From the IMG/VR virus record IMGVR_UViG_3300035070_002905, positions 108,111 to 172,110 of that record: 64,000 nt of DNA; one strand, given 5' to 3'. A program made the position numbers and the translations under genes. Of this stretch, positions 29,417 through 37,804 are shown piece by piece. The notes under the pieces were generated by a model, which saw only the letters and a program-made list of their open reading frames with translations, ran no database searches and was not told the DNA's origin. Each line of letters starts with the position of its first letter. The first letter of the stretch is position 1. This DNA is from a virus.

Positions 29417-30391
29417 TTATAGGCGAGGACTGATTTGACCAAGCACGAATGCCTTCGTATTACCGATGCCAACACCTACTGCTTCGTAAGTCTTGAACGA
29501 GATCATATCTGCTTCAGACTTCAGGTATACAGTTGGCTCTTGTAGAGAGTAGAACTGACCGAAGTAAGCTTCAGGAGCGAATACTACTACTAAATCACCT
29601 TTAGCTGCAGTTTGTTCTGCATCTGTTCCGGCGTCAAGCCAAGCTGTATTCAAGATATCAGACTTGTTAGAAGTTACGATTTCGAAACCGTAGAAACCTT
29701 CCATTGAACCTGTGTCGAAGTGACGAGAAGCCACTGCGTCACCTAGCTGAGTAGCTGGTTCACGTAGAATCGCAAGGTAAAGCTGATGAGACATCAGGAT
29801 CTTGCCAGGTTTTTGGAAGTCATCAACCATGAACTGTACTAGCTGCATAAGCTTGTCAGTAACAGTTACGCCAGTCAACTCAGTATCGTTGTAGTAACGA
29901 CGACCAGACAAGCCACGAGTATCACTAAAGATCTGAGCTAGAGAAGTAATGAAGTTACTATCTTCTTGCTTCTGGATGTCTTTCACTGAGTTCTCTTGCA
30001 AGATGTGACGGATGTCAGTCTTGTAAGTAGCTAGCTCAAATTTAGACTTTTCGAATTCCGCAGATTCAATCTTGTGGAATGCTACTTGGTAACGTGAACC
30101 TTTGAAGTAACGAGTCTCAGACTTACCGTTCAATGCGATTGTAGCCGCTACTGAATCAGGTTCTTTCTCGATGATCACACGTGGTGTGTCGTCTAGGTCA
30201 CGGTCAAGGTCACTTGCTGTAACCATTTGTGGAGTAAGGATCTTACGAGTAAATCCGTCTTCACGTAGTTTTTGTCGAACGAACGTAGACATTGCTGCGC
30301 CCGCTTCTTTCGTCATGCCCTGCTCAATCTTATCTAGGAAAGCGTTGTTCAGGAACTGAACGTTCAGTGTTTCAGTTGCATATTCAGACAT
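29417..30391 (-). CDS. Major capsid protein
   Basis: 324 aa; follows protease/scaffold/decoration genes; followed by strong terminator; LREDGFTRKIL.P and IQKQED..F patterns. Confidence 0.8.
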   Translation of the reverse strand: MSEYATETLNVQFLNNAFLDKIEQGMTKEAGAAMSTFVRQKLREDGFTRKILTPQMVTASDLDRDLDDTPRVIIEKEPDSVAATIALNGKSETRYFKGSRYQVAFHKIESAEFEKSKFELATYKTDIRHILQENSVKDIQKQEDSNFITSLAQIFSDTRGLSGRRYYNDTELTGVTVTDKLMQLVQFMVDDFQKPGKILMSHQLYLAILREPATQLGDAVASRHFDTGSMEGFYGFEIVTSNKSDILNTAWLDAGTDAEQTAAKGDLVVVFAPEAYFGQFYSLQEPTVYLKSEADMISFKTYEAVGVGIGNTKAFVLGQISPRL

Positions 30392-30403
30392 TAGTCTCTC
30401 CTA

Positions 30404-30907
30404 TTACTTCAAGATGATTACACGAGTCGGTGCAGTAACACCAGTATCGTCAACAGCGTTGTTGTTAAGTTCTAGACAGTAAGCGCCTGGAACCGCATCA
30501 GTAACCGAACCTGAAATTGCACACCAGCAAGGGCGGTTTGTATTAGCATTGATGCCGATACCTACAGCAGCACCTGGAACTGGAGCAACGTCGTTAGTAC
30601 CGCCAGAACCAATCTCAGTAGTCTCTAACACAGCATTACCGAATAGTACGATGTTAGGCCATACTTGACCGCCTGTACCAGTAGTCTGTGAAAGGAAGTC
30701 GGCAGCACCACGAACGACTACGCCGATAGTACTCGTATCATTAGCAGTAGCAGCTTCAATTACTCCGCCTGCAGCAGTTACTTTAACAATATTTCCGTTA
30801 CCAAAAGTAGCAGAACCTGAACCGTAGTTCATCTCTGCAGTTGGTTCGGCCATAGGCCAGCCACGTAGGAAGTTCGCGGCATACTCAACAGTATTTAATC
30901 GAGCCAT
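30404..30907 (-). CDS. Putative capsid decoration/cement protein
   Basis: Small G/T/A-rich beta protein immediately upstream of MCP. Confidence 0.6.
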   Translation of the reverse strand: MARLNTVEYAANFLRGWPMAEPTAEMNYGSGSATFGNGNIVKVTAAGGVIEAATANDTSTIGVVVRGAADFLSQTTGTGGQVWPNIVLFGNAVLETTEIGSGGTNDVAPVPGAAVGIGINANTNRPCWCAISGSVTDAVPGAYCLELNNNAVDDTGVTAPTRVIILK

Positions 30908-30921
30908 CTATTTGTCTCCAA

Positions 30922-31449
30922 TTATGATAGTAAGAATTCGGTAAAGCTATCAACACCCGTCGCTAGACGATCTGATGGCCCACCCATATTCATTGGCGTG
31001 TTATTGACTTGATAAGCTACTTTCTGCAGGGTAGAATCATCTAGCATGCTTAGAGCATTTAGATCCTCACCTGAAAACACGCCAGTGTCAGATAGTGCTT
31101 CAACCGAAGGCGCCTTAACTGCATCTTCTGCAGCCTTTTCCATATTGGAAAGATCGGCCTCTCTGTTATCTAGTTTAACCTCTAAATCAGCAATATAACC
31201 AGCAGTCTTCTCAAAGATTGTCGCGAAGTGCTTAAGTTCCTTTGCTTTCTCGAGGTCTTGATCACGATTTGGATAAGCGCGCTCTGCTAATTTCTCAAGA
31301 AGACCTTCGGCGTCTGCCTGGTCGACGCCCTGTGTAGACAGGGCCTCAACTGTACTCTTCTTAATGTCGCCCCAGGTATTCTCAAGGGCGGAAGCTTGCT
31401 TCTCCAGATTTCTAGCCTGCGTGAATAGCAGGTCTGTAATCTCGGACAT
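30922..31449 (-). CDS. Acidic coiled-coil scaffold/core protein
   Basis: LEKQAS, FEKTAG, MEKAAE, LQKVAY; C-terminal DSFTEFLLS. Confidence 0.55.
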   Translation of the reverse strand: MSEITDLLFTQARNLEKQASALENTWGDIKKSTVEALSTQGVDQADAEGLLEKLAERAYPNRDQDLEKAKELKHFATIFEKTAGYIADLEVKLDNREADLSNMEKAAEDAVKAPSVEALSDTGVFSGEDLNALSMLDDSTLQKVAYQVNNTPMNMGGPSDRLATGVDSFTEFLLS

Positions 31450-31458
31450 GCTTACTCC

Positions 31459-31935
31459 TTATTTATTAGCAGCGCGTTCTTGCTTGCGGAGATCCTTGCG
31501 GATATCCTTATGCTGTTGCTTGGCGGATGCCTTACCGTGAGATGCACCTACTGCCGCGCCTGCCGCAAGACCATAAGTCTCTCGGTTACGCTTAACATGT
31601 GCGCCAGTCTTACCGGCTACGTCCTTTGCCTTACCGGCAAGTTTCTTAGCTTTCTTCTTGGCTTGCTGAGTACCTGCAGCTGCTAGCAAAGCTGTGTTCA
31701 GACCGGCAGTCTTATTCATCTTCGCGTCGCGAGTCTTCTTGGCTTGCTTCTGGGTCTTCTTCATCTCTTTAGAATCGCCAACTGCTACACCAGCACCTAG
31801 GCCTAGAGCCATACCAGTACCGACTGCGCCTGCTGTACCACTTTGTGCACCTTCTTTAAAGGCCTTTACACCTTTACGAGTAGCTTTACCCGCCGAACCA
31901 TCTTTGACTTTGCCGATGGCTTTCTTAGCCTTCAT
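31459..31935 (-). CDS. Lysine-rich basic ORF; probably the -1 frameshift extension of the upstream scaffold
   Basis: No clear RBS; reading frame is open back to the GGGAAAG site at 31962-31968. Confidence 0.65.
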   Translation of the reverse strand: MKAKKAIGKVKDGSAGKATRKGVKAFKEGAQSGTAGAVGTGMALGLGAGVAVGDSKEMKKTQKQAKKTRDAKMNKTAGLNTALLAAAGTQQAKKKAKKLAGKAKDVAGKTGAHVKRNRETYGLAAGAAVGASHGKASAKQQHKDIRKDLRKQERAANK

Positions 31936-31958
31936 TCGCCCAAGACGTCCGACGGCTT

Positions 31959-32702
31959 TTACTTTCCCGCTAAAGCGGCTTCCTTCACTAGCTCAACTGC
32001 AGAGGCGAAATCCATGCCGTCTTCAGTCATAAGCTCTTGAACAGCAGCTGCTTTTTCTAAATCTGAATAATCTTCTGATTGATCGCATGCTTGCTTAACA
32101 AGCTCAACTGCGTCTTCAAAAGAGTGACCTTCTTCTAGCAAGATGCCTACAGCAGCAGCTTTCTCAAGCTCGTCGCCTTCAGACTCAAGCTCTTCAGAAG
32201 CTTGCTTAACTAGTGCGATAGCATCTTCGAAGTCAACACCGTCAGCCATTAGCTCGTCTAGAGCAGCTTTCTTATCGATGTCGGAAGGTTTAGCTGGTAC
32301 GTTAGAAGGCTCATTACCTTCAGATGCCATTACGTCATCTTTGTGTTCGCCACCTGCAACGCCACGCTCTTGAAGTGCTTTAGCTACCTGAGTAACTGTT
32401 TTGCCTTCGCGAGGAGTCAGCTCATCACGAGCATCATCTGAAGCAACCATTGTATCGATTTCTGCGATAACTTTGTTTTCAGCAGCTTTCTCGTGACCAT
32501 CAAGCATTGCTAGGATGCTGTTTGCGATTTCTTGACCTGTAGCCATAGTGTTTGTATCTCCCATATCTGATGCAGATTTTTCTAAAGTTTCTTTAAGTTC
32601 GTCAGCAGCAGAAGTTTCTGATGCTACCTTCTCGATCTCAGCCGAGCCGTCTTCAGCCTCAAGACTTTGAAGCAGGCTGTCTAGAGTAAATTCGTTAGAC
32701 AT
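31959..32702 (-). CDS. Prohead scaffold/core protein
   Basis: GGAG RBS before MSNEF (32702); very acidic; three (E/K)KAA...LM/L.xG.xF..A..LVKxA repeats; directly after protease. Confidence 0.7.
   Translation of the reverse strand: MSNEFTLDSLLQSLEAEDGSAEIEKVASETSAADELKETLEKSASDMGDTNTMATGQEIANSILAMLDGHEKAAENKVIAEIDTMVASDDARDELTPREGKTVTQVAKALQERGVAGGEHKDDVMASEGNEPSNVPAKPSDIDKKAALDELMADGVDFEDAIALVKQASEELESEGDELEKAAAVGILLEEGHSFEDAVELVKQACDQSEDYSDLEKAAAVQELMTEDGMDFASAVELVKEAALAGK
31962..31968 (-). other. Programmed -1 ribosomal frameshift slippery site G GGA AAG
   Basis: GCG GGA AAG TAA; the -1 frame reads VKAVGRLGR-MKAKK... into the downstream ORF. Confidence 0.75.
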
Positions 32703-34137
32703 TGTATTCTCCAAGTTCATTACGAATCGCTAGATCCATAAGTTTCATTGTCAGGGCCGATTGCTCGACTCCACTATTTGATTTTACCTCACTGGCAGTC
32801 TTGTTCATCCCGCCTGCGATGGTACTAATCATTATTTTAGCGATTATCGCACCGCCAACCAGTTTTAGCAGCGTATTTGTGTTACCGGTAGTAGGCCTAC
32901 TATTAGTTTGTGTGAGGTTTCGCGCGTATTCAGGACGAATATCTGCACCCCCACGGCCTTCCTGCCAGTTAAGCGCTGCTCGTTTCTCTACGTAATCTCG
33001 CTGATAGCTAGATGTCTCCATATACTTATACAAGATGTTGATAAGCTTAGGATTCGGTAGAGTATCTTCCATATCAGGGATCAGTTCGTCGGCGTCAAGA
33101 GGGATACTCTCTACTCCGTTTTCCTGAAGTGCCTTCATGGCTAACATAGCGATCTCGCCTTCACGAGAGCCTACATACTTACTTGCTAATATTTTAACCA
33201 AAAACTCAACAGACGGATTAATTCCAAGGTGAGCAAGGGTAGAAATGATATCCGTAAGAGGGTACGGCTTGAGTACATCTACTACATCCATATCGGGATC
33301 GCGAACCTTCTCTAGGATCTGTAATAGACTTCCACTAGCCTCTACCTCGCCAGGAATTTCCTTAACGATATCAGCAGCTTTAGCTAAAGCGGCCTTCTTA
33401 ATGCTAGCTCGTTTCTCTGTACCGTAGGATACGCCTTCTGCGTCCGCAGCCTCTGCCGAACCGATAGTAACCTCGTCACCTGCAACTTTCTGGAGTACAG
33501 AACTAGTTACATCTGCGGGACGAATTACGATCGAAATGTCAAAGAATTTTAGCGGACCGACGTTGATCGCCATTACGCGACGGCCGTCAGGCATAATCTT
33601 ATTGAGTTGGGTAGTAAGATGCGAACAGTATTCTGCACGGCTATGCGCCTTATTATTACAGATACTACATACATCGTACGGGGTGTTACACGCCATAGAC
33701 GTCATAGGGAATTGGCCATCTTCGATAGCTGCAAGTTCCATAGCTCCCAGCTGCTTATCGACTTCGGCTACTAATTCTACTCGGTGCATACGTGGATTGT
33801 AGTACGAGTAGATTACCTTACCGATCGCTCGAGCGGGATCTTTATTGACGTGATGACGGAATACATGAGCGGGACTAGTCTCGAAAGTCTTGTACCACTG
33901 TAGCAGGTTATCCTCAGGGAAGTAGTCCCCGTTACGGTTAGAGCCGTAGTATTCGCCTGCACCCATAGCGTTGATGTGTAAGTAGAACTTGCCTTCTTCG
34001 GGAGTAATCTCCCCGACAAACTCCGTGACCTCATCTGCGGCCGCGGCTTTCTCAAGTCCACTAGAAGGAGACTCTAGGTCTAGTAGAGTCACCTCCCAAT
34101 CTTCAGAGAAGGACACAGCATCAATTAGCTTGTCCAT
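32695..34137 (-). CDS. Prohead (maturation) protease
   Basis: NRNGDYF, FRHH.NK, TSM.C..PYDVCSIC, YCSHL and FFDISIV.RPAD fit an HK97/herpes-fold head protease; head-module synteny. Confidence 0.75.
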   Translation of the reverse strand: MDKLIDAVSFSEDWEVTLLDLESPSSGLEKAAAADEVTEFVGEITPEEGKFYLHINAMGAGEYYGSNRNGDYFPEDNLLQWYKTFETSPAHVFRHHVNKDPARAIGKVIYSYYNPRMHRVELVAEVDKQLGAMELAAIEDGQFPMTSMACNTPYDVCSICNNKAHSRAEYCSHLTTQLNKIMPDGRRVMAINVGPLKFFDISIVIRPADVTSSVLQKVAGDEVTIGSAEAADAEGVSYGTEKRASIKKAALAKAADIVKEIPGEVEASGSLLQILEKVRDPDMDVVDVLKPYPLTDIISTLAHLGINPSVEFLVKILASKYVGSREGEIAMLAMKALQENGVESIPLDADELIPDMEDTLPNPKLINILYKYMETSSYQRDYVEKRAALNWQEGRGGADIRPEYARNLTQTNSRPTTGNTNTLLKLVGGAIIAKIMISTIAGGMNKTASEVKSNSGVEQSALTMKLMDLAIRNELGEYNV

Positions 34138-34145
34138 ATAGACTC

Positions 34146-34670
34146 CTATCGAGCCTGCTTGGCTAGCTTCTCTTCAAGTTCAGTTACTGCGCGAACAGTC
34201 TGAAGGTCTAGGCTCTCGCCGTGCACTGCGTTAGTCAGTACGTTAGCAAGTACGTTAGCATCGCCTGCTACTGTAGGAGCGAACGCGAAGATAGAATCTC
34301 CAAGACGCTTAGCTTTCATCGGGTTATCTGCAAGGATCTCAGACATCTTAATAGCCTGTTGAAGTGCCGCTTGATAGCGTTGCTTCTGACCAGATGCGCC
34401 CATAGAACCTACAGCTTTACTGAATGCCATTGCGCCTAGAGTACCCAGTGCAGTAGCGCCCATACCTAGAGCTGCCTTACCTACATTCTCGCCACCGAAA
34501 GCGCCTGCAAAGTCAGAACCCCAAGCAGCTTCCTTATCCATACCAGTAGTAAGCATCAGGCGTTCAAGTTCCTCTGCAGTCTTCTCGACTAGCTCTGCCT
34601 TATCGTACTCGCATGCCACTTTCTCAAGGCCTTCTGTTAGAGCCTCTTTAAATTCTTGAATTACGTCCAT
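34146..34670 (-). CDS. Putative internal head/ejection protein
   Basis: GAGGA RBS before MDVIQ (34670); LEKVA, VEKTA, MDKEA, then a Gly-Ala hydrophobic helix. Confidence 0.55.
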   Translation of the reverse strand: MDVIQEFKEALTEGLEKVACEYDKAELVEKTAEELERLMLTTGMDKEAAWGSDFAGAFGGENVGKAALGMGATALGTLGAMAFSKAVGSMGASGQKQRYQAALQQAIKMSEILADNPMKAKRLGDSIFAFAPTVAGDANVLANVLTNAVHGESLDLQTVRAVTELEEKLAKQAR

Positions 34671-34671
34671 A

Positions 34672-35676
34672 TTATCCTCGTAGAGATTTCCAAGCATCAT
34701 GCTTGCGGTTAGTTTTACGCGATACTTCAGCAGCTGAATCCGCTACCGACCACGTATTGTATGCCTTCTTAGCCTTACTGGCTGCCGGGCTTTGCTTAGC
34801 TGCGGCTGCTCGTGACTTACCAGACTTAATGGTATTCTGAGCAGTTACTTTAGCTGCATTAAGGAATGGCGCCAGCGCCTCCTTGATGAATCCCTCGGCT
34901 TGTACAACCTTAGGTTCCAGCTCTGACAGCTCAGCTTGTGCTGCCTTTACCATAGTAAGTGTTTCTGATAGATATTTTACGTCGCTCAGTGCACTATCGG
35001 TAAATACTGTACGGCTTTCCTGAGGTTTAGCAGGAGTGAACTCGTTACGAATACTTGCAGCTTTCTCTAGTCCCATAGGAACATCGAGGATATCACCGTC
35101 GAAATGCTGAGACTTAATACCGTCAGGGTAGATCAGTTTGCATAGTTCATCGGCGTTATCAAAATGAGCAACCTTCTCTAGTACTTTAGGATCTCCGAAT
35201 ACTACATCACGTGCAGCGGCTAGCTTGCATAGGTTGTCATGGCTAGCTTCCTTCAGATGATCTACTCGACGACGGCCGTGTTCTGACTGACGCTTAAGCA
35301 TCTTGATCTTATCTGTACGGCCCCACTTCTCGAGGTCTGCCTCTTTCTCAGTGGCTACCTTCTCCATAGGCTCGGCGAAGATGTCTGTGATGCTAGAGAG
35401 AACGTCGGGAGTATCCTGTACGCTCGCCTGCTTGGTAAACATACCAGACATTACATCATCGTATTTAGCTACGTCAAACTCAAAGGTACGATCAGCCGAC
35501 TTCTCTAGTTGAGAAAGGTAGGCGACTTGGTTAGTCGCCTCCACTAGTCGTTGAATCTGATCGGGGTTGAGTTCGTTATCCATAGCCTGCTTAGTAATGG
35601 CTCCCGTTAAGTTACCATCCTGAGCATCGACGACACAGCGTGCCGCCATCGTTTTTAAGGCTTCTGGTGTGAACAT
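34672..35676 (-). CDS. Putative prohead core protein with many KxA motifs
   Basis: ITKQAM, LEKSAD, FTKQAS, MEKVAT, LEKVAH, LEKAAS, MVKAAQ, FIKEAL; LNPDQIQRLVE..N. Confidence 0.6.
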   Translation of the reverse strand: MFTPEALKTMAARCVVDAQDGNLTGAITKQAMDNELNPDQIQRLVEATNQVAYLSQLEKSADRTFEFDVAKYDDVMSGMFTKQASVQDTPDVLSSITDIFAEPMEKVATEKEADLEKWGRTDKIKMLKRQSEHGRRRVDHLKEASHDNLCKLAAARDVVFGDPKVLEKVAHFDNADELCKLIYPDGIKSQHFDGDILDVPMGLEKAASIRNEFTPAKPQESRTVFTDSALSDVKYLSETLTMVKAAQAELSELEPKVVQAEGFIKEALAPFLNAAKVTAQNTIKSGKSRAAAAKQSPAASKAKKAYNTWSVADSAAEVSRKTNRKHDAWKSLRG

Positions 35677-35677
35677 A

Positions 35678-37804
35678 TTATCCCTCGTGTGCGATTAAGT
35701 TTTGCAGCTCTACGTAGTTCTCTCCGAGATTACGGAAGGTGTTACGAGTAGCTGTCATCAGTGAGTTAAGTGCATCGGCATCGATCTGCTCTGCCAGCTT
35801 AGCACTGTTAAGGCGCATAAGGAACAGTGAACGTCCCAGCTTGTCGATTGCATCCTTGATATCAGGTAGATACTCTTGGATTGCTCCGTGCATATCCGGG
35901 TTATGGAGCATCTCGGTAATCAGAGTAGCCTCCATAGCCTGACGGTCAGCCGAAGCTGCAGCATTCTCTACCTTACCTGGCATGCCCTCGTTACGTTGGC
36001 GTGCGGTACCGGTAATCTGCTTATCATTAGGAAGTTTCTCACCGTACTCAACCATAGGAGAGCGCATTGTAGCACCGCCACCAGTGGAAGGACGACCGCC
36101 GCCTCGAGCTGCCTCTTTATTCATACCGAAGAACGCGTCCATCTCCTTAGCGGCTGCATCTTTCAGCATACCTACTGCGCGATCTTCTGCGGTACCCGTC
36201 AGCTGCTCGGTCTGACCCTTCCCGCGGACTGCGGTATGAGTAGCTCCTAGAGCTGAAGCGGATGTAGGTGCAGGGATGTTTCCGTAACGTGGGAATGGCG
36301 CCGGTTTAGCGTTACGAGAATCCTGACCACCTGAACCGGTACGTGCGTTGGCTTGCTTGCTCATACGGATATTAACCGTACCCTGCTCTTCAGCCTTCTT
36401 AACGAAAGTCTCAACGGTCGGTACGTCCATCGACCAGGTTACCAGGCCGTGTGTGATCATCTGAGGTTTACCGCCTACTACCTGACCGTCTACTGCATAT
36501 TGACCATCACGGTGCTGTAGAGTAGATGCGTAAGGGAGTGCGCGTGCCTCGTTGATCTCATGGATCATCTGTGCCTTATTGATATCAGTCATGATTTCAA
36601 CAGGTGCTTCAGATAGTGGAACGAATGTAGCATCCTCTGGAATAAGGTGCATACCTTTAGACTTGCAGTAGCGCTTGATAGATGGATGAGTCTTGAAGTA
36701 AGTACAACCACCATCGCCTAGTACCTTGAAGCAAGTCCAATCGCCTTCTTTGTATACTTCAGCCACTGTACCGGCCTCTGCATATCCTTCAGGAGTAGCG
36801 AACATACCATAGTCTTTCTGCTTGACGGCTACTAGAGCCTTGGCGCCAAGCTCTTCGAGTGCCGATTCATAGCTGACCGGACGCTCGTATACTACAGGCT
36901 TCTGCTTACACGTCATGCTAACCATCTGGCCTTTAGTAGTAACTACCAGAGGACCTTCGCCGATAGGAGCATTCGTACCGCGACCCAGTCGCTTATTAAG
37001 TAGAAGGGCATCGCCGTCCTGATTAGACTCAAGACGCTTAAGACATACCACGCTGATATCTTGTCCGGCCATAGTAAGACCGTTGTAGGCCTCGCCAGGT
37101 TGCAGGGAGTTAGCCTGAACGAATGCGTCTACACCACCGGCTTCTACAGCTACGATGGTTGACTTAGGTGCGTTCTTAACGGTGTAGCCTTTACTTAGTA
37201 CTTCCTGAACCTGCTCTTCGCTAAGTCCACCGGCCTGAGTGACAACCTCTGGCATTGGACCTACCGGTGCACGGTATTCAGGCTTCGGACGATTAATCGC
37301 CTCGATTAGAACCTCTACATCCATTACTGGATTGATGTGGTTAGCGCACTTCTGAATCATCGCCGCCATACCTTCACGCAACTCGTTAGGAAGCTGAGCT
37401 GCAAGTTCATGTACACGGGACTCGCCTGCGTATACGTACTTACCAGTCTTAGGTGGAACGATGGCATCATATAGATCAGGATCTCGAGCCACGTGGCCTG
37501 GAACCTTCTCGCCCTGACCGAGGAACGGGTCCTTCTCCATCAGCCATTCGACTGACTTCTTGGTTAGCGGGATGAATACCTTAGCTTCGGCGTCGAAGAT
37601 CGACTCCATAGGCTGTACGGTATCACCCTTAGCAATAACAGGTACGTAGTAGTACTTGTTATTCATATCGATAATGAACATACCGATCTGAATGCCATTG
37701 TTTTCAGGCAACTCCTCGGTCATGTCCTTGAAAGCTGCGACGTAGCGTCCCAGTTCCGGGGCTTGACGTTGAAGCTGGTTCATCGCCTGCTTAGAATAGT
37801 CCAT
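35678..37804 (-). CDS. Large putative internal head protein (708 aa)
   Basis: YSKQA, FVKKA, MSKQA, MNKEA motifs; located in head module. Confidence 0.55.
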   Translation of the reverse strand: MDYSKQAMNQLQRQAPELGRYVAAFKDMTEELPENNGIQIGMFIIDMNNKYYYVPVIAKGDTVQPMESIFDAEAKVFIPLTKKSVEWLMEKDPFLGQGEKVPGHVARDPDLYDAIVPPKTGKYVYAGESRVHELAAQLPNELREGMAAMIQKCANHINPVMDVEVLIEAINRPKPEYRAPVGPMPEVVTQAGGLSEEQVQEVLSKGYTVKNAPKSTIVAVEAGGVDAFVQANSLQPGEAYNGLTMAGQDISVVCLKRLESNQDGDALLLNKRLGRGTNAPIGEGPLVVTTKGQMVSMTCKQKPVVYERPVSYESALEELGAKALVAVKQKDYGMFATPEGYAEAGTVAEVYKEGDWTCFKVLGDGGCTYFKTHPSIKRYCKSKGMHLIPEDATFVPLSEAPVEIMTDINKAQMIHEINEARALPYASTLQHRDGQYAVDGQVVGGKPQMITHGLVTWSMDVPTVETFVKKAEEQGTVNIRMSKQANARTGSGGQDSRNAKPAPFPRYGNIPAPTSASALGATHTAVRGKGQTEQLTGTAEDRAVGMLKDAAAKEMDAFFGMNKEAARGGGRPSTGGGATMRSPMVEYGEKLPNDKQITGTARQRNEGMPGKVENAAASADRQAMEATLITEMLHNPDMHGAIQEYLPDIKDAIDKLGRSLFLMRLNSAKLAEQIDADALNSLMTATRNTFRNLGENYVELQNLIAHEG

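Follow-up and report, generated by a model that had tools for sequence, protein, structure and literature searches.

The 64,000-nucleotide (nt) stretch of viral DNA analysed here (the window; positions 108,111 to 172,110 of IMG/VR record IMGVR_UViG_3300035070_002905) raises the question of how a basic, glycine-rich open reading frame (ORF) is translated that lies directly behind an acidic, scaffold-like gene of the head module. Comparison with relatives points to recoding: in this Arash/D69-like phage of about 170-180 kb, the acidic gene probably ends on a -1 programmed frameshift site of the lambda G/GT type. The closest phages in GenBank are the Vibrio phages D69, D148, and D181 (about 187 kb) and the Salmonella phage Arash (181 kb). 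An earlier note on this DNA had proposed that a -1 programmed frameshift fuses the acidic protein to the basic ORF, and this proposal is supported by conservation of the slippery heptamer, by its loss together with the basic ORF, by relatives whose basic ORF has no usable start codon, and by others in which the two parts are fused in frame.

On the minus strand, the acidic ORF closes with GAA GCC GCT TTA GCG GGA AAG TAA. Together with the last base of GCG, the final two sense codons form a heptamer of the X XXY YYZ kind, placed in the 0 frame so that both tRNAs can re-pair after a shift of one base backward (Table 1). The -1 reading, GGG AAA GTA AAA GCC GTC GGA CGT CTT GGG CGA ATG AAG..., then continues uninterrupted to position 31459, so that the -1 frame offers a long ORF of 167 codons (119-167 in the relatives described below). 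The predicted products are a protein of 247 amino acids (aa) from the 0 frame and one of 247+167 = 414 aa from the -1 frame, with the fusion junction at ...ALAGK-VKAVGR.... GGGAAAG is the slippery sequence of lambda G/GT (listed in Table 1 of PMC3296357), on which shifting reaches about 4% and is sensitive to the modification of U34 in tRNA-Lys(UUU) (PMC3296357). The string GGGAAAGTAA occurs once in the window compared to 0.04 expected occurrences (at least one in 4 of 100 shuffles), and GGGAAAG itself is present a single time on both strands of the 64 kb, at the slip site, compared to 4.6 expected. The gene ending with its -1 frame open into the basic ORF, the identity with the lambda gpG/gpGT heptamer, the two product sizes, and the junction peptide ALAGKVKAVGR had all been part of the earlier note, and the sequence and the published list of slippery sites bear them out. 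We found no promoter-like or terminator-like site between the acidic and the basic ORF; a strong terminator follows the capsid gene. No tRNA genes were found in the 64-kb window.

Table 1. Positions of the putative frameshift site, its products, and the surrounding head-module genes in the window (SD, Shine-Dalgarno sequence)
Feature	Position	Strand	Remarks
Acidic scaffold-like gene	31959-32702	minus	247 aa; from the ORF listing, start ATG 32702 behind SD GGAG
Slippery heptamer G GGA AAG (X XXY YYZ), 0 frame	31962-31968	minus	Gly-Lys encoded in both frames
0-frame stop TAA	31959-31961	minus	abuts the 3' end of the heptamer
-1 frame extension, 167 codons	31459-31962	minus	open to the stop at 31459
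Internal ATG, codon 10 of the extension	31933-31935	minus	start of the 158-aa ORF (31459-31935) as a gene caller would report it
Imperfect stem-loop, candidate stimulator	31927-31957	minus	starts 4 nt after the heptamer; -11.3 kcal/mol
LVKEA	31977-31991	minus	last of eight motifs in the acidic protein; five residues before the slip-site Gly-Lys; candidate protease site
Gly/Ala-rich uncharged segment with GxxxGxxxGxxxG	31777-31839	minus	tail residues 42-62; from the translation
MNKTA	31705-31719	minus	tail residues 82-86; hydrophobic-x-K-x-A-G; candidate second processing site
Portal-sized protein		minus	708 aa; first in the head-module order
334-aa, then 184-aa protein	34146-34700 (184-aa gene)	minus	after the portal-sized gene
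Prohead-protease-like gene	32695-34137	minus	480 aa; matches the head-maturation-protease PHROG
175-aa and 167-aa proteins	between the basic ORF and the capsid gene	minus	from the ORF order
Major capsid gene	29417-30391	minus	Pfam Phage_capsid and PHROG major head protein

Further loci came from a scan of IMG/VR and metagenomes with the protease, from a protein search with the acidic protein (214 matches), and from look-ups of the encoding contigs; the lineages taken to the DNA level were picked from proteins ending in Gly-Lys (GK). The frameshift arrangement is present in the window, in D69, in L003 (also in L014 and L015), and in L094, L095, L097, L098, L099, L100, and L104. In all ten of these lineages, N-G GGA AAG is followed at once by a stop codon (TAA in nine, TAG in L104), and the -1 frame holds a basic ORF of 119-167 codons. 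Third codon positions set the heptamer apart from its surroundings. Those on which it depends, namely the final bases of the preceding codon (G), of GGA (A), and of AAG (G), are identical in 9/9 tabulated lineages, and L104, the tenth, keeps all three. At the eleven other third positions within the last twelve codons, no more than 4-7 of the nine agree, and across the 38 codons in front the third positions have a mean pairwise identity of 0.41. The codon in front of the heptamer varies (GCG, CTG, TTG, TCG, and ACG, encoding Ala, Leu, Ser, or Thr) around a constant final G.

The heptamer is present in all ten lineages with a -1 ORF and in neither of the two lineages without one. Of these tail-less relatives, L096 retains the Ala-Gly-Lys end, but as GCT GGC AAG TAA, which demonstrates that this ending does not require the heptamer codons. 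The other one, L101, ends with GCT AAA TAA. In neither lineage does the -1 frame stay open beyond 20 codons; the next gene, directly behind, is the 175-aa homologue. The heptamer is thus kept at synonymous positions and tied to the presence of the -1 ORF; conservation in relatives, which the earlier note had named as a check on its proposal, is seen in all ten lineages with the -1 ORF.

The main alternative is that no frameshift takes place and that the basic ORF constitutes a gene of its own (158 aa) whose translation begins at ATG 31935, by weak independent initiation or by termination-reinitiation, next to an incidental heptamer. Several observations fit such a gene: the ATG is located 21 nt after the scaffold stop and conserved in L104, a strong SD is not required for stop-restart coupling, the Arash clade has the positional equivalent as a gene of its own behind GAGGTG-ATG, and an internal GTG with a strong SD is found in L095. 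However, pairing of the sequence in front of ATG 31935 with the anti-SD amounts to -3.6 kcal/mol, which is background level (the mean at random positions is -2.7), and the ATG lies partly inside a predicted stem. The SDs of the neighboring genes reach -5.2 to -8.8 kcal/mol, except for the 184-aa gene (+0.1), which starts at an ATG still within the final part of the 334-aa ORF; the earlier statement that the 158-aa ORF lacks the good ribosome-binding site of its neighbors therefore stands, with the 184-aa gene as a second weak case. The ATG at codon 10 is absent from the lineages other than the window and L104. The first ATG, GTG, or TTG of the -1 ORF is reached at codon 120 of 147 in L097, where the source called no gene in the 450-nt gap, at codon 45 in L098, at codon 28 in L094, and at codon 26 in L003, and none of the latter three has an SD. 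A separate gene would thus have to do without a start for 119 codons in L097 and for 25-44 codons in L098, L094, and L003, and these codons are conserved as protein: along the start-less stretch, D69 and L098 share 33 of 53 aligned residues, 18 of them by different codons, and L097 and L098 share 52 of 116 residues, 31 of them through synonymous differences. Nor does a separate gene explain why three third positions of the heptamer are invariant in ten lineages or why the heptamer is lost exactly where the -1 ORF is lost. Taken together, we consider this alternative improbable.

Relatives in which the two parts form one gene bear on the remaining alternatives. Many homologues of 289-367 aa run in frame from ...LVK(E/Q)A through a basic stretch and a Gly/Ala-rich uncharged segment to a basic end, and some of them are known from tens of member sequences. 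We checked the fusions P0014 and P0028 on DNA; in both, the genes are arranged as (protease)-fusion-175 aa-about 160 aa-capsid, and GGGAAAG is absent from the junction. The existence of these in-frame fusions indicates that a single polypeptide of scaffold-tail layout is a normal, selected product. The -1 ORF could also be an untranslated, decaying remnant of such a fusion tail, next to a heptamer that is kept for another reason. Complete loss of the tail ORF from L096 and L101 shows that it is dispensable in some genomes, but ORFs of 119-167 codons have stayed open in ten lineages at about 40% third-position identity, with amino-acid conservation through many synonymous changes and with a conserved order of domains, which makes a remnant very unlikely. 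Least credible of all is an assembly or sequencing indel, i.e., a one-base error in the G/A run of a gene that is in truth an in-frame scaffold-tail fusion: such fusions do occur in relatives and the site is a short homopolymer run, but ten separately assembled sources, among them the isolate genomes D69, D148, and D181 and metagenomes of different projects, share the same frame change, heptamer, and stop, and the junctions of the fused relatives look quite different.

In most relatives, the heptamer is followed by a stem-loop. The structure is significant in seven of nine relatives (z of -2.3 to -5.2 against dinucleotide shuffles); the distance from the heptamer to the stem is 3-6 nt in six relatives and 12 nt in L095. 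L104 has a stem of -17.7 kcal/mol located 11 nt from the heptamer, which is not counted among the seven since its energy comes without a shuffle test. In L096 and L101, which served as heptamer-less controls, z of the stem-loop is near 0.

A number of observations weigh against programmed frameshifting or narrow what it can account for. Folding downstream of the heptamer, suggested in the earlier note as a search for a stimulator, gave the significant stems of the relatives but failed for the window itself, whose own stem-loop (z = -0.98) is no better than shuffles; its 3' arm takes in part of ATG 31935. L099 has no stem-loop. An SD-like AAGGAA, which precedes the heptamer by 12 nt, is limited to some of the lineages, and we dropped it as a stimulator. 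As the lineages were chosen from proteins ending in GK, the ten represent a related clade and not independent origins. In L095, at about 2325-2342, the internal GTG at codon 17 stands behind TAAGGAGG, which pairs at -12.1 kcal/mol; the tail of this lineage may be made both by frameshifting and by internal initiation. Similarly, the window and L104 may produce, in addition to the fusion, a 158-aa protein by separate initiation or re-initiation, and for the window we regard initiation at ATG 31935 as an extra route beside frameshifting as quite conceivable, though short of an even chance. In favor of the frameshift reading, Arash gp223 and gp224, the positional equivalents of the two ORFs, were both detected in virions by mass spectrometry (MS; PMC10585845), but the likeness between gp224 and the tail is not significant, and this virion evidence carries to the tail by position only; moreover, the MS data were searched with annotated proteins only, and Arash has no slip site (PMC10585845). 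The AlphaFold2 (AF2) model of the tail is all-helical and of low confidence (predicted local distance difference test, pLDDT, 49.6), and the function proposed for the tail is drawn from its composition. Finally, the trans-frame product, likely as it is, is a prediction from sequence in all of these phages.

Under programmed frameshifting, most ribosomes would read GGA-AAG, stop at TAA, and release the 247-aa acidic protein. A minority would slip back by one base on G GGA AAG, so that tRNA-Gly pairs anew with GGG and tRNA-Lys with AAA, either in a tandem shift or in a P-site slip with the stop codon waiting in the A site. In all ten lineages the stop directly abuts the heptamer, so that the P-site route, in which tRNA-Lys moves from AAG to AAA, would yield the same protein. 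According to the older Escherichia coli literature, a stop codon next to a slippery site raises shifting. The slipped ribosomes would go on for 167 codons and produce the 414-aa protein, in which the acidic body carries a basic tail with a glycine zipper. In this way the frameshift would fix a low ratio of tailed to untailed protein. The acidic body would then take the tail into the prohead, where the prohead protease would cut at hydrophobic-x-K-x-A motifs, leaving the basic tail as a protein of the head interior that could act as cargo or as an anchor between shell and DNA.

The head-module genes of the window occupy 29417-37804 and are all encoded on the minus strand. Within this module, the acidic gene comes directly after the protease-like gene and three genes upstream of the major capsid gene. 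Its product has a net charge of about -42 and ends in three repeats of about 37 aa, EKAAAV...G.DFEDAV.LVKQA, which span 31977-32290 (residues about 138-242). The AF2 model (pLDDT 71.9) consists of helices throughout, and residues 141-244 form three helix-turn-helix repeats of high confidence. The position between prohead protease and major capsid gene and the acidic, helical product agree with a scaffold. Likeness to a described scaffold family was found neither in sequence, with no family match in Pfam or PHROG scans, nor in fold, with no Foldseek match of the model to PDB or BFVD at E ≤0.001. We therefore call the protein scaffold-like, on the grounds of position, charge, and helicity only. 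The repeats show weak, sub-threshold resemblance to UPF0758_N and YoaH-type annotations only. Its homologue Arash gp223 was found with 283 spectra in virion preparations by MS (PMC10585845). Because of this presence in virion preparations, the acidic protein may be a processed internal head protein rather than a scaffold that leaves the head completely; detection of gp223 agrees equally with a processed internal protein and with a classical scaffold.

The proposed processing draws on a motif that recurs across the head module. [LMFIV]-x-K-x-A (e.g., LEKAA, LVKQA, MEKVA, and MNKEA) is strongly enriched in six proteins of the module, namely the portal-sized protein, the 334-aa and 184-aa proteins, the protease, the scaffold-like protein, and the 175-aa protein; each has 5-9 matches compared to about 1 expected. 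It occurs once in the capsid protein, near the N-terminus at residue 26, and is absent from the non-head neighbors. The scaffold-like protein alone contains 8 such motifs compared to 0.7 expected from shuffles. This distribution makes [LMFIV]-x-K-x-A a candidate recognition motif of the prohead protease in this phage group, and release of the tail at LVKEA, an instance of the enriched motif and the point proposed in the earlier note, is plausible.

The tail is as basic as its carrier is acidic, with a net charge of about +33. From its N-terminus, it consists of a basic helix, a glycine zipper, the MNKTA motif, a basic region, a second Gly/Ala segment, and a basic C-terminus. Residues 50-62 read G-MAL-G-LGA-G-VAV-G, and the GxxxGxxxG pattern also appears in the consensus of the tail alignment, confirming the glycine zipper that had been noticed earlier in the basic domain. 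MNKTA aligns with LEKSA, FEKKA, MFKSA, and MSKKA in relatives. Scans of Pfam and PHROG assigned the tail to no family, and tblastn of the 158-aa ORF against GenBank phages gave no match. We also compared the tail with Arash gp224 by profile-profile alignment. The hhalign result (probability 1.1%, E 0.047) is not significant, and we therefore claim positional equivalence and no homology: the two share position, charge, and a Gly-zipper-like layout only. A second Gly/Ala-rich, glycine-zipper-like protein is encoded by the 184-aa gene just upstream of the protease, and its counterpart in L102 (L102 285-614) has a weak match to Pfam Gly-zipper_YMGG.

Besides the frameshifted, fused, and tail-less arrangements, relatives show a split one. 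In the Arash clade (L002, L017, L018, and L053), a GC hairpin ending in a T-rich tail comes after the scaffold stop, and GAGGTG and an ATG come next; the frame relation of the two genes is variable, and in L018 they are in frame. The hairpin (GCCCTCTTCGGAGGGC type; L002 6572-6612, also in L017, L018, and L053) thus precedes the SD of the basic gene, resembles an attenuator, and would also lower the basic protein relative to the scaffold. Possibly, the acidic repeats and the basic glycine zipper form one module of the head interior with three interchangeable modes of expression in sister lineages: an in-frame fusion, a fusion dosed by frameshifting, and two genes separated by an attenuating hairpin. 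In this tentative reading, the acidic body would be a capsid-targeting carrier that loads a fixed, small number of tails into the prohead, and the tails, released by the protease at hydrophobic-x-K-x-A, would serve as DNA-associated or membrane-active ejection proteins. If this holds true, the module would be a recoding-based dosing system for packaged cargo.

In tailed phages, programmed frameshifts are textbook knowledge for tail chaperones and known for a few capsid and tail-tube proteins. The tail assembly chaperone frameshift of lambda G/GT has reportedly been described by Levin, Hendrix and Casjens (1993) and by Xu, Hendrix and Duda (2004). The window resembles lambda in the identical G GGA AAG with Gly-Lys encoded in both frames, in a 0-frame stop just downstream, in the prediction of a short abundant and a long rare product with a common N-terminal body, and in the conservation of the site among relatives. 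It differs in location, as the site of the window falls within the head module, after the prohead protease gene and before the capsid gene, and that of lambda between the genes for tail tube and tape measure. In addition, the proteins are unrelated to gpG and gpT, the stop abuts the heptamer, and most relatives add a stem-loop. We considered the acidic gene as a tail assembly chaperone of the gpG/gpGT kind and rejected this in view of its head-module position and the absence of a family match; only the recoding signal is common to both.

Frameshifts are also known in head genes. One report (PMC5221750) cites -1 frameshifts in capsid genes for T7 10A/10B and for the major head protein of Lactobacillus phage A2. 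As proposed for the window, a head structural gene is concerned and a minor, C-terminally extended form arises by a -1 slip near the stop. However, T7 10B and the A2 protein are extended forms of the shell protein itself, whereas the window would extend an acidic, scaffold-like protein of the head interior; the part added would be a long basic tail, which in relatives is either a fused domain or the product of a gene of its own. Head assembly proteins that share sequence are also known from lambda C/Nu3, which uses nested expression. Mu I/Z employs an in-frame internal start (PMC4378225). These systems resemble what is proposed for the window in that one stretch of mRNA gives two sequence-sharing head-assembly polypeptides at a fixed ratio, but internal initiation leads to a shorter C-terminal product, whereas recoding in the window would lead to a longer, C-terminally extended one.

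Among the closest phages, Arash (OQ632216) has the same head-module synteny, and its gp223, at about 45% identity, is clearly homologous to the acidic protein; its basic gene gp224, in contrast, has its own SD and ATG after the hairpin, and the heptamer is missing. D69 shares the heptamer, the stop, and the -1 ORF with the window.

The open-access literature that we searched describes no frameshift in a phage scaffold gene; the matches for phiEf11 and Mu-like phages were tail or capsid frameshifts and in-frame internal starts. Nor did a C-terminal domain dosed by frameshifting onto a scaffold-like head protein appear in this literature. The recoding signal is thus the known one of lambda G/GT, and what appears to be new is the gene family and module that it would serve, a scaffold-like gene of the head. 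Fused, frameshifted, split, and tail-less versions in close relatives amount to a natural experiment, and the system is suited to studying the selection for a fixed ratio between the extended and the unextended form of an assembly protein, as well as the targeting of cargo into large capsids.

The frameshift reading also corrects annotations, since the basic ORF is mis-started or missed in D69, L094, L097, and L098, and one TAG has been called as Gln. In D69 (OZ195729; L001 5325-5491), 168 nt between VPHD69_0271 and VPHD69_0272 are unannotated, and VPHD69_0272 as annotated begins at an internal Met, so that the part of the -1 ORF with the glycine zipper is lost. In L104 (1501-2319), the scaffold gene has been called with TAG as Gln, giving a 272-aa product. 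Other genes of this locus contain no internal TAG, suggesting that the recoded call is an artefact; the arrangement is ACG GGA AAG TAG followed by a -1 ORF of 167 codons.

Two further observations concern more distant or neighboring genes. In L025 (6950-6980), a more distant relative, A AAA AAG is located nine nt before the stop of a scaffold-like gene, and the ATG of a basic -1 ORF overlaps this stop (TAATG); the heptamer could be a second, independent slippery site or a chance occurrence. Arash gp225 (L002 5419-6021), as annotated, overlaps gp224 by 70 nt, and comparison with the 175-aa homologues indicates that its true start is probably a later Met (MNTDL...).

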